DNA of 64,000 nucleotides from an uncultured cyanobacterium (GCA_963710605.1 CAVQBA010000006.1:704001-768000), one strand, 5' to 3'. Positions 9,086 to 41,165 are shown, counted from the first letter of the stretch. Notes: generated by a model not told the origin, from the letters alone. A program made the numbers and translations.

Positions 9086-10267
9086 ATGACTACTGAAAAA
9101 GAAAGAATATATTGGTTAGCATGGTCGAAGATAAGAGGTTTAGGCCCTGTTTCACTCAAAAAAATCTATAATCATTTTGGTAGTCTAGAAAAGGCTTGGT
9201 ATTGTGCGGATAATCAATATTTACAAGTAGATGGTATAGGTAAAAAAAGTCTAGTCTCTTTGGTTGAAGAAAAAGCGAAAATTGAGCCTGAAAAACTATT
9301 TATTCAACATCAACAACAAAATCCTCATTTTTGTACTCCTAGTGATGCCGAATACCCGCAATTGTTATTAGAAATACCTAGTACTCCTGCGGTGTTATAT
9401 TATACTGGTGATTTAAAATTAGCTCAAACCGAAGGAGTCAATCATCTAATAGGGATTGTTGGGACAAGAAATCCGACCGAACATGGTCGTAGATGGACTT
9501 ATAATATCAGTCAGGCATTAGCAAAAAGTGGTTTGACGATCGTTTCTGGTTTGGCTAAAGGTATTGATACTGTCGCTCATCGTGCTTGTTTAGATGTTGG
9601 TGGAAAAACGATCGCTGTTTTAGGAAATGGACTCGATCGAGCTTATCCTTATCAAAACAAGAAATTAATGGCAGAAATAGCTGAAAAAGGGCTTATACTG
9701 ACAGAATATGAATATGGTAGTACCCCCGAAAGAGGAAACTTTCCTGCTCGTAATCGAATTGTAGCAGGGTTATCTAGAGCAGTATTAGTAATGGAAGCAC
9801 CAGAAAAATCAGGGGCATTAATTACCGCCCGTTATGCTAATGAATTTAATCGAGATGTATATACTTTACCTAATACTCCAGATAATTTACAAGCTAGAGG
9901 ATGTTTGAAGTTGATTCATAAAGGTGCAGAAGTTATTATCACTGAAGAAGAATTATTATCTAGTTTGGGTGATATTCCTAGTTTGACTCCTTCTGCTTCA
10001 CAACAATTATCTTTATTTAATTCGACTAACGAAACGACTAGCCAAACAACAACTGAATCTATACCTACGCCAACTAAATCAAATCGTCCTGATTTACAAC
10101 CGCCTTTTGCTACAGTCTATAATGCGATCGCTTCATCTCCAACTTCATTAGATACCATCGTCAATAATTCGGGATTAAATGCACCTGAAGTATCGGCTAT
10201 TCTATTGCAATTAGAGTTAGATAGTCTTGTGACTCAATTACCCGGAATGATGTACAAAATCAATTGA
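9086..10267 (+). CDS. dprA: DNA-processing protein DprA
   Basis: IVGTR, VSGLAKGID, FPARNRIVAGLS and SGALITA motifs; C-terminal winged helix. Confidence 0.95.
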   Translation: MTTEKERIYWLAWSKIRGLGPVSLKKIYNHFGSLEKAWYCADNQYLQVDGIGKKSLVSLVEEKAKIEPEKLFIQHQQQNPHFCTPSDAEYPQLLLEIPSTPAVLYYTGDLKLAQTEGVNHLIGIVGTRNPTEHGRRWTYNISQALAKSGLTIVSGLAKGIDTVAHRACLDVGGKTIAVLGNGLDRAYPYQNKKLMAEIAEKGLILTEYEYGSTPERGNFPARNRIVAGLSRAVLVMEAPEKSGALITARYANEFNRDVYTLPNTPDNLQARGCLKLIHKGAEVIITEEELLSSLGDIPSLTPSASQQLSLFNSTNETTSQTTTESIPTPTKSNRPDLQPPFATVYNAIASSPTSLDTIVNNSGLNAPEVSAILLQLELDSLVTQLPGMMYKIN

Positions 10268-10272
10268 TAATT

Positions 10273-10373
10273 GCGGTGGAAGCCCGCGTCGGCGAAAGAC
10301 GCAAGCGGTCAGAACCCGCGACGACTATAAGTCGCAAGGGAAGGCTGACCAAGACGGGAATGTCCACCAAGAC
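10273..10373 (+). mobile_element. ~50-bp structured mini-element with a second copy (10305-10355) nested inside it
   Basis: Outer GCGGTGGA...TCCACCAAGAC and inner GCGGTCAG...CTGACCAAGAC; third family member at 41050-41102 on the minus strand. Confidence 0.8.
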
Positions 10374-10604
10374 GAGAATTGAGAATTGATAATTAAAATT
10401 GTAGCAATAGTATTGTTTAATATCAGTTAACGCTCCGATTCTATTTGTAATCATGTGATACTCAAAAACAGTCGATTGAGGAAAACTTCTCCTCTCTCTT
10501 GAATTGATTTATAGCCTCAAACAAATAAATTCCTCTGTGTACTCTGCGACCTCTGCGGTTAATAATACGATAAAGTATAAAGACTCTAACCAATCCATTA
10601 AGTA

Positions 10605-22976: not shown

Positions 22977-23050
22977 CGGGACGTAGCGCAGCTTGGTAGC
23001 GCACCACTTTGGGGTAGTGGGGGTCGTAGGTTCAAATCCTATCGTTCCGA
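22977..23050 (+). tRNA. trnP: tRNA-Pro(GGG); CCA not encoded
   Basis: CGGGACG acceptor stem, CCACT-TTGGGGT-AGTGG anticodon arm, GTTCAAAT T-loop. Confidence 0.96.
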
Positions 23051-40962: not shown

Positions 40963-41165
40963 CGTAGTACCACAAAATTAATTGGATGTAGTGATACTTC
41001 AAAGTTTTATTGTGAGCAGAAGCATTTTCTCTCGTCGAGGGTGTAAGCCGTCCTGGTGGACATCCCTTGCGGGCGTGTAGCATCTGAGCGGAATTCCACC
41101 GCTTACACCCCTGCCTTTGAAGGGGAGGATTCGGGATTATACAAATAATTTTGCATAGGTACTTA
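40963..41165. mobile_element. MITE-like element (29819 family) whose REP loop is interrupted by the 53-bp mini-element at 41050-41102
   Basis: GTAGTACCACAAAATTAATT left end, AATTTTGCATAGGTACTTA right end; GGGTGTAAGCC|insert|TTACACCCCT. Confidence 0.7.

Follow-up and report, generated by a model that had tools for sequence, protein, structure and literature searches.

The island downstream of dprA

What is the short island that lies between dprA and an array of heptamers in this cyanobacterial genome, and how could it have got there? The window (the whole stretch of DNA analysed, 64,000 nucleotides, G000:C6:704001-768000) comes from an assembly, here called G000, of 3.93 Mb in 7 contigs, with 33% G+C and 85% completeness. 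A preliminary description had read the island as an outer element of 50 bp split by a relative of 51 bp, and a re-reading of positions 10273-10373 shows this parse to be exact (Table 1). The outer copy, hereafter a mini-element like the inner one, totals 50 nt (10273-10304 plus 10356-10373) and is split at CGCAA^GGGA by the 51 nt of the inner copy (here and below, the caret marks the point of insertion). The island is flanked by ...caattgataatt on the left and gagaattgagaattgataatt on the right, and its removal re-forms the run of GATAATT/GAGAATT units that had been predicted.

Table 1 Coordinates of the features discussed (positions in the window unless a contig is given)
Feature	Position	Strand	Basis or remark
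dprA open reading frame	9086-10267		Pfam DNA_processg_A + DprA_WH
Left target flank, heptamer units AATTGAT/GATAATT beginning at the dprA stop codon	10261..10272	+	sequence
Outer mini-element, 5' part GCGGTGGAAGCCCGCGTCGGCGAAAGACGCAA: GCGGT, 5' arm of P1, CCC, whole P2 (GCGTC-GGCGAAA-GACGC), AA bulge	10273..10304	+	local cmsearch match 10286-10304 = model positions 14-32; nested fold
Inner mini-element GCGGTCAGAACCCGCGACGACTATAAGTCGCAAGGGAAGGCTGACCAAGAC, 51 nt, complete, within the CGCAA/GGGA bulge of the outer copy	10305..10355	+	cmsearch 73 bits, E = 2e-18, full model
Outer mini-element, 3' part GGGAATGTCCACCAAGAC: GGG, AATG internal loop, 3' arm of P1 (TCCACC), tail AAGAC	10356..10373	+	
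Right target flank, GAGAATT x3 heptamer array	10374..10394	+	Tandem Repeats Finder, period 7, 3.0 copies
GT4-type glycosyltransferase gene	start 10605		
REP-type host hairpin (GCAGGGGTGTAA ... GGCTTACACCC), its loop containing the third copy	41039..41114	-	empty form GTAGGGGTGYAAGGYTTRCACCC common in the genome
Third, diverged mini-element copy, 53 nt, ending ...CCAGGAC, between convergent genes	41050..41102	-	cmsearch 40.4 bits, E = 3e-9
TnpB with a 17-residue insert between GKK and GYPQF	L209:85-1344 = G000:C6:583084-584343	-	

Folded as RNA, the 101-nt island adopts a nested structure of -44.4 kcal/mol (z = -5.6; 0 of 200 shuffles as good), in which the outer 3' part pairs with positions 10275-10280; the inner copy folds at -22.2 kcal/mol (z = -4.6). 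The fold of the island as DNA is weaker (z = -3.2). A second, identical version of the inner copy is found at G000:C7:445595-445645, and the split form of the outer copy recurs at 14 further loci of G000, with at least 15 more outer copies interrupted by an inner one. The third copy that had been claimed in the window was recovered as well. In Rfam, the only match of the whole window is a tRNA gene (22977-23050), and a search of 10200-10450 at E up to 10 gave two sub-threshold chance matches, ALIL with 17 bits (cut-off 50) and snoZ242 with 13 (cut-off 90). An empty version of the dprA spacer was sought in one congener, where the gene that borders the spacer is preceded by a different gene and no orthologous spacer exists.

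A family of bulged hairpins

A covariance model (R1) was built from 31 copies of G000 matched by a regular expression; its search of that genome returned 50 matches at E <= 1, the best at 9e-18, and it found more in related genomes. The preliminary description had implied a family of three copies: the family is real, but it comprises about 50 copies in G000.

The mini-element follows the pattern 5'-GCGGT...ACCAAGA(C/G)(A)-3' and forms one bulged hairpin. Its consensus runs GC, P1 (GGTNNN), A-N, CCC, a variable P2, an AA bulge, GGG, A-A-N-G, P1' (NNNACC) and the tail AAGAC(A). P1 is a closing stem of 6 bp (GGTNNN/NNNACC), separated by a small internal loop (A-N versus A-A-N-G) from the CCC/GGG stem; the distal hairpin P2 carries the 2-nt AA bulge on its 3' side, and the tail, AAGA(C/G)(A), is single-stranded over 5-6 nt. 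Pairing in P1 brings the start of the element to its end and so sets the left and right target flanks side by side.

The co-variation of the stems, proposed from two copies, holds on much larger samples. Among the 31 copies of G000 (23 distinct), 96.6% of the cells are paired and 6 of 14 pairs changed on both sides; the corresponding values for 103 copies from other genomes (90 distinct) are 96.3% and 9 of 14. None of 500 shuffles reached the score in either set, counts that overstate significance because the aligned copies share kinship. When the 3' partners are slid by 1 to 3 columns, pairing falls to 24-39% in the first set and 26-55% in the second. The stronger argument for the predicted stems is the variety of pair types (GC, CG, AU, UA, UG) at the variable positions. 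RNAalifold, unprompted, returned an identical structure from the 31 copies of G000. In the alignment of 103 sequences, 32 cells are G-U or U-G versus 8 that are A-C or C-A, 23 of the 32 coming from one related subfamily; this excess indicates that the strand beginning with GCGGT is the one that folds.

Both ends and the core had been described as fixed. This is nearly so for the 5' start, which is GCGGT in 103/103 copies of other genomes and in 29/31 of G000 (ACGGT in the other two), but the 3' end and the core vary. Many copies of G000 end in AAGAC, copies elsewhere in AAGACA or AAGAGA (51 nt), and AAGA also occurs; the common core CGCAAGGGA has the variants GCTAGGG and GCTAAGG. Such variation at the 3' end would be unusual for site-specific cleavage and may count against it. 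Three copies (L016:51-101, L033 and one at G000:C4:~47223 on the minus strand) have the ends and the closing stem of the family (GCGGTCA...TGACCAAGAC) around an unrelated AT-rich interior, which suggests that the termini alone may be enough for mobility.

Target sites and empty sites

The sites of 31 contiguous copies of G000 were tallied (regular-expression matches, from which two chance matches and one odd variant had been dropped). Thirteen of them interrupt a second member of the family, which is split at CGCAA^GGGA in 12 cases and is degenerate in the remaining one, and 11 lie exactly between tandem heptamer units (GAGAATT, GACAATT, GTCAATT, ACTCCTT, GTTGATA). Five occupy the loop of a GTAG-footed REP (GTAGGGGTGYAA^GGYTTRCACCC) and two a second hairpin repeat (CCCCTCTCCT..GGA^GAGGGG). 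Nesting has recurred independently: one and the same inner sequence is present four times, distributed over three outer copies that differ.

The points of insertion are A^G or, more loosely, W^R. Of 84 unique non-nested sites in other genomes, among the matches listed, 70 have A just ahead of the element; its 3' terminus reads ACCAAGA plus C or G in 79 and a further A in 77, and 50 have G as the first base after it. These preferences define a target of roughly AA^GG. The bulge of the mini-element itself, CGCAA^GGGAA, is a good copy of this target, which accounts for the self-nesting. All these targets (heptamer junctions, loops of REPs and of other hairpins, A-runs and the bulge) are single-stranded or easily unpaired places.

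Comparisons of filled and empty sites show that the insertion is precise. The REP arm GTAGGGGTGYAA occurs at 50 sites in G000, most of which are empty (GGYTTRCACCC), with about 11 among the forms listed filled at CAA^GG; at the second hairpin, 11 of 17 sites are empty and 6 filled. In these hairpins the additional block measures 50 nt (ending in AAGAC) or 51 nt (ending in AAGACA) and no target base is duplicated. Similarly, an IS1-like pair of the relative G019 (InsA zinc ribbon and IS1 DDE domain), with and without the mini-element, differs in the shared region by one base and by a 51-nt block that lies inside a run of seven A, again with no duplication. The ends, GCGGT versus AAGAC(A), are not inverted repeats of each other. 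The absence of terminal inverted repeats and of target duplications had thus been read correctly from the island, and further copies and empty sites, whose lack would have spoken against the preliminary description, exist in large number.

Several side observations concern these host repeats. G000 has several families of GTAG-footed REPs, GTAGGGGTGYAAGGYTTRCACCC with about 50 copies and also GTAGGTTGGGTT..., GTAGGGGTTGAACA... and GTAGGGTGCGTTC..., and at least three intact RAYT genes accompany them. TTGGGGGTGAGG often follows the second hairpin repeat, CCCCTCTCCT(C)GC(A)GGAGAGGGG, which has 17 copies (L005, L015, L031; for example G000:C4:140032-140181). One RAYT-like frame (G000:C7:534730-535337) is split around C7:534960-535014 by a REP hairpin in which a mini-element is nested (L026, G000:C7:534946-535097). 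In chimeric copies (L032 = G000:C6:367853-368023, L087, L111, L146) the 5' half of one variant runs straight into the 3' half of a second variant, and the orphan 3' half of the first comes next; such forms resemble the deletion products of recombination between the direct repeats within a nested pair.

In G000, 45 of 47 copies are intergenic. Relative to the neighbouring genes, 18 are co-directional and 12 opposed, 8 lie between divergent and 7 between convergent genes, which amounts to no bias; a crude open-frame test of genic insertions (18 versus 12) likewise shows no clear preference for sense or antisense. A strand bias relative to replication is a signature of ssDNA transposition. The copies of G000 number 29 on the plus and 15 on the minus strand, arranged in runs, and the GC skew is flat on all contigs.

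Insertions in genes

Since the 51-nt form corresponds to 17 codons, it can be tolerated in coding DNA. An intact TnpB of G000 (420 aa, OrfB_IS605 and Cas12f-like TNB domains) reads through a degenerate copy that adds 17 residues, ADAIPRRRQAQGNAHQA, and exactly these 17 positions are missing from a paralogue at GKK^GYPQF. Different variants also occupy this site in Baaleninema and three further records (L106, L139, L159 and L171, among the matches listed), so it has been hit recurrently. As a separate observation, the insert-free paralogue (L216, G000:C6:936623-940321) is apparently split after about residue 124, with some 2.4 kb between the parts that hold a reverse transcriptase frame of 593 aa; this is probably a group II intron in tnpB, near the site of the mini-element. 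Other genic sites are a second one in TnpB (MVKN^HKLA, Okeania) and sites in IS630-like, IS5-like and IS701-like (DDE_5, G002) genes; at each of them the removal of 51 or 53 nt restores the frame. In the IS1-like pair of G019, the two frames overlap at the A7 run with a -1 offset, and the mini-element is present there in four copies (L035, L203). This run is probably a programmed frameshift site of the IS1 type.

In G002, 12/12 IS701-like copies that reach the site carry the mini-element, five of them being 100% identical over 350 nt, and the mini-element is far better conserved than the host gene. Two IS701-like subfamilies in L036 (G002:C1:1179105-1182154), 76% alike in the 350-nt flank, have a near-identical mini-element at the same codon. 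The complete occupancy and the near-identity across subfamilies imply that part of the copy number there is due to hitch-hiking or selection and not to transposition of the mini-element itself. The IS must also have multiplied after the insertion, and restored frames are obtained by removing 51 nt from IS701-like, IS630-like, IS5-like and TnpB genes, as would be expected if the mini-element were removed from the transcript like a tiny intron, or skipped by translational bypass, and the interrupted transposases stayed functional. Nevertheless, the IS copies of G002 have further frame breaks, look internally deleted and are probably non-autonomous, while G019 has an empty copy that could act in trans. 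The predominance of intergenic copies in G000, the lack of a ribozyme-like core and of an Rfam match, and the failure to find matching take-off and landing codons at the inspected sites also argue against removal from RNA, which we hold to be extremely unlikely.

Distribution among genomes

The model has matches in 8 of 40 relatives (4 of the 19 from the same family), and within one genus 23 copies in one species contrast with none in six congeners. In an even sample of the phylum, at least 4 of 150 further genomes match, all from the same order, a figure that is an undercount, since the filters of this search were tighter and the candidates that it scored were few. Named genomes, scanned with a degenerate pattern, yielded at least 119 loci, nearly all in cyanobacteria. 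Okeania, Moorena, Dapis, Xenococcus, Waterburya, Crocosphaera chwakensis CCY0110, Lyngbya sp. PCC 8106, Baaleninema simplex PCC 7105, Limnoraphis, Spirulina, Phormidesmis and others are among the matches listed, as are about six longer non-cyanobacterial ones that look like chance. Many genera among these matches have nested or tandem copies, or chimeric ones that are partly deleted. No Nostoc record appears among the matches listed for these loci, there is no match in Nostoc plasmids, and the 17 sampled genomes of one family (3.8 to 7.2 Mb) gave none in the search of the phylum sample. In a plasmid collection, four records from Chondrocystis and Stanieria carry the mini-element.

Viral contigs gave 11 loci. 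The clear copies are tandem arrays on one inspected contig (IMGVR_UViG_3300045998_000148), with 2-3 head-to-tail units at a period of 51 nt at four loci; the other matches measure 45-64 nt. The arrays L228 and L235 have a truncated unit at one end, and tandem copies are also present in L090, L100, L155 and L163. Such arrays, with their incomplete terminal units, are a hint of either rolling-circle copying or successive insertions at the A^G boundary that the element itself provides.

A structure conserved across genera, and a sequence that in G002 and in the TnpB copies of Okeania has changed less than the flanking DNA, could also be those of a regulatory or structural motif of the host (an RNA stabiliser, a terminator or a protein-binding site) kept by selection and spread by recombination. 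Yet the mini-element is precisely present or absent in otherwise identical DNA, it interrupts transposase genes and other repeats, its distribution is patchy and it shows no orientation preference relative to genes; at the dprA locus of the window, a terminator-like site is absent. A host function as the reason for its spread appears scarcely credible to us. In contrast, it is highly likely that the mini-element is, or recently was, a mobile selfish element.

Search for the mobilising enzyme

No copy holds a cargo gene between its ends: when 5' and 3' halves were matched within 6 kb, no split copy longer than 147 nt was found, and no nuclease, transposase or reverse transcriptase gene bounded by these ends was detected in G000. 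The genes between neighbouring copies of G000, inspected for an autonomous version, are ordinary. As no copy contains a gene, movement must take place in trans, which is also the natural reading of filled and empty sites that represent real insertions. The idea of a non-autonomous element moved in trans, put forward in the preliminary description, therefore stands as far as a dispersed, structured, non-coding and self-inserting repeat with no cargo is concerned, but is unproven for its suggested partner, as neither an HUH/Y1 nor a reverse transcriptase gene is bounded by the same ends.

The Y1 complement of G000 consists of seven IS605-type transposase genes and several RAYT-like genes. A subclass 1.2 Y1 enzyme was considered and rejected, since all seven strong Y1 proteins are of IS605 type. 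No link to IS605 was found either: the ends (RE ...TCAA; ...AGCTAAA) and hairpins of two resident elements do not resemble the mini-element. No match to the IS110-type transposase profile PF01548 was found in G000 (85% complete), the control matching 6 of 14 genomes; the IS91/Y2-type profile PF04986 gave no match either, but its control matched no genome.

The RAYT-like genes bring up another possibility, namely that the mini-element is the REP of a REP/RAYT system (REPtron), moved or maintained by a RAYT (TnpA-REP) nuclease. It is indeed a GC-rich hairpin repeat, mostly intergenic, in a genome with several such Y1 genes, and in-frame insertion of REPs into cyanobacterial genes is on record (PMC6006769). 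The diagnostic features are nonetheless missing, since neither strand of the mini-element has a GTAG (GT[AG]G) or CGTC foot. Of five Y1/RAYT-like frames, four are flanked by GTAG-footed REPs of other sequence, among them three intact RAYT genes, one by none, and none by the mini-element. Two RAYT types have homologues in 19/40 and 18/40 relatives and do not track the eight bearers of the mini-element, the first being missing from G002, G019, G022, G031 and G035 and the second from G001, G002 and G035. Moreover, REP loops are places into which the mini-element inserts, that is, REPs are its targets. Mobilisation by a RAYT is accordingly very improbable.

Reverse transcriptases are numerous in G000, with 18 RVT_1 matches and at least seven long open frames; nothing was found that links them to the mini-element. 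Seven reverse transcriptase matches fall within 20 kb of contig 5 (G000:C5:10000-30000). Spread through RNA would have the mini-element transcribed, folded as RNA, reverse-transcribed by such a resident enzyme and joined as cDNA into A^G sites. The abundance of candidate enzymes, the heterogeneous 3' end, the excess of G-U wobbles over A-C mismatches on one strand and the head-to-tail arrays of IMG/VR, whose partial end units fit rolling-circle copying of a small circular template, all agree with this route. Nevertheless, ssDNA tolerates G-T wobbles equally, every copy is full length at both ends, A-tails and target-primed duplications are both absent, and orientation is unbiased relative to transcription; judging from their length (573-634 aa), the reverse transcriptases look like ordinary group II intron proteins. 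Overall, an RNA route seems unlikely.

Proposed mode of movement

We find it fairly probable that the island consists of one copy nested in another of a non-autonomous mini-transposon, 50-51 nt long, that travels as a folded single strand with help in trans. The mini-element would be excised or copied as such a strand, ssDNA more likely than RNA; an enzyme acting in trans would recognise the conserved foot of P1 and the tail, and would join the folded strand into single-stranded A^G sites. A double-stranded circle of 50 bp is physically implausible. This, together with the wobbles on one strand and with targets made of loops, bulges, A-runs and slippage-prone heptamers, favours a folded single-strand intermediate, a component of the proposal that we regard as evenly balanced when taken separately. 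As to the chemistry, cleavage and joining by an HUH-type enzyme is the best guess, although a doubtful one. With only 2 nt on the 5' side of the stem there is no room for a guide of the IS608 type, so a classical Y1 mechanism does not apply in unmodified form.

A more daring version of the proposal can be formulated from the same sequences. The 51-nt hairpin would carry everything needed in cis (stem foot and 6-nt tail) and would be moved by a hitherto undescribed single-strand cleave-and-join activity, on DNA or RNA, at unpaired A^G, possibly with a small circular single-stranded intermediate and rolling-circle copying; the same machinery could then move the SDRs discussed below. In this full form the idea is on the improbable side.

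Comparison with known repeats

As the preliminary description had it, the mini-element cannot be assigned to a named family: it has no Rfam match at gathering score, and none of the full texts searched describes it or contains its motifs. Judged by the features tested here, it falls outside MITEs, IS605 derivatives and REPs of the RAYT kind.

By description, the closest known analogue is provided by the small dispersed repeats (SDR4/5/6) of Nostocaceae (Elhai et al. 2008, Genome Res 18:1484). The SDRs reportedly have a conserved secondary structure, nest and associate with tandem heptamers; their consensus sequences are said to be 21-27 nt long and to differ from the mini-element. Both are very small, non-coding and apparently mobile cyanobacterial repeats with precise insertion and no known enzyme. 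SDR5 inserts precisely between the third and fourth bases of HIP1 (GCG^ATCGC) (PMC4390886), whereas no insertion of the mini-element into HIP1 is seen among the matches listed, its targets being A^G with A at base -1 in 70/84. According to another report, SDR-like repeats were not found outside Nostocaceae (PMC5861425); the mini-element, in contrast, inhabits other lineages (Okeania, Moorena, Xenococcus, Waterburya, Crocosphaera, Lyngbya, Baaleninema and others).

REPs and REPINs resemble the mini-element as short GC-rich hairpin repeats that are mostly intergenic, have tens of dispersed copies and sometimes lie in frame within genes. The mini-element differs from them by its lack of a GTAG/CGTC foot and by being neither adjacent to RAYT genes nor co-distributed with them, as well as by its architecture, a single bulged hairpin of 50 nt with conserved single-stranded ends that inserts into itself and into REP loops. 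With IS200/IS605 elements and PATEs it shares the absence of inverted ends and of target duplications, hairpin recognition, a single-strand logic and a short target motif. Yet it has one hairpin in place of separate left and right ends, 2 nt before the stem and a target, A^G, that is not a fixed tetranucleotide, and the ends of two resident IS605 elements are unrelated to it. MITEs such as Nezha of cyanobacteria are also non-autonomous, short, structured and dispersed, but they have terminal inverted repeats, target-site duplications and an origin from DDE insertion sequences, none of which applies here. Finally, the Rickettsia palindromic elements (RPE) are palindromic selfish repeats of about 100-150 bp, restricted to Rickettsia, that lie in protein-coding genes and add a peptide in frame. 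The 17-residue insert in TnpB recalls them, whereas most copies of the mini-element are intergenic. Its in-frame residence in genes also resembles that of REPs inserted into RAYT genes (PMC6006769).

Conclusions

The mini-element offers a clean example of a mobile element that is defined by sequence, widespread and much smaller than MITEs, with a defined target, both filled and empty sites and a structure supported by compensatory changes. It makes the old question of how tiny cyanobacterial repeats move directly testable: the covariance model yields copy numbers across genomes for phylogenetic profiling, and a 51-nt oligonucleotide is usable as bait or substrate. In its hosts, the mini-element disrupts or extends genes, as seen in transposases of five families and in the 17-residue insert of TnpB; it also breaks assemblies and repeat annotation, and marks horizontal exchange among marine and benthic cyanobacteria. 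If a new hairpin-specific activity does move it, the mini-element would be among the smallest transposable units, and that activity may also explain the movement of SDRs.
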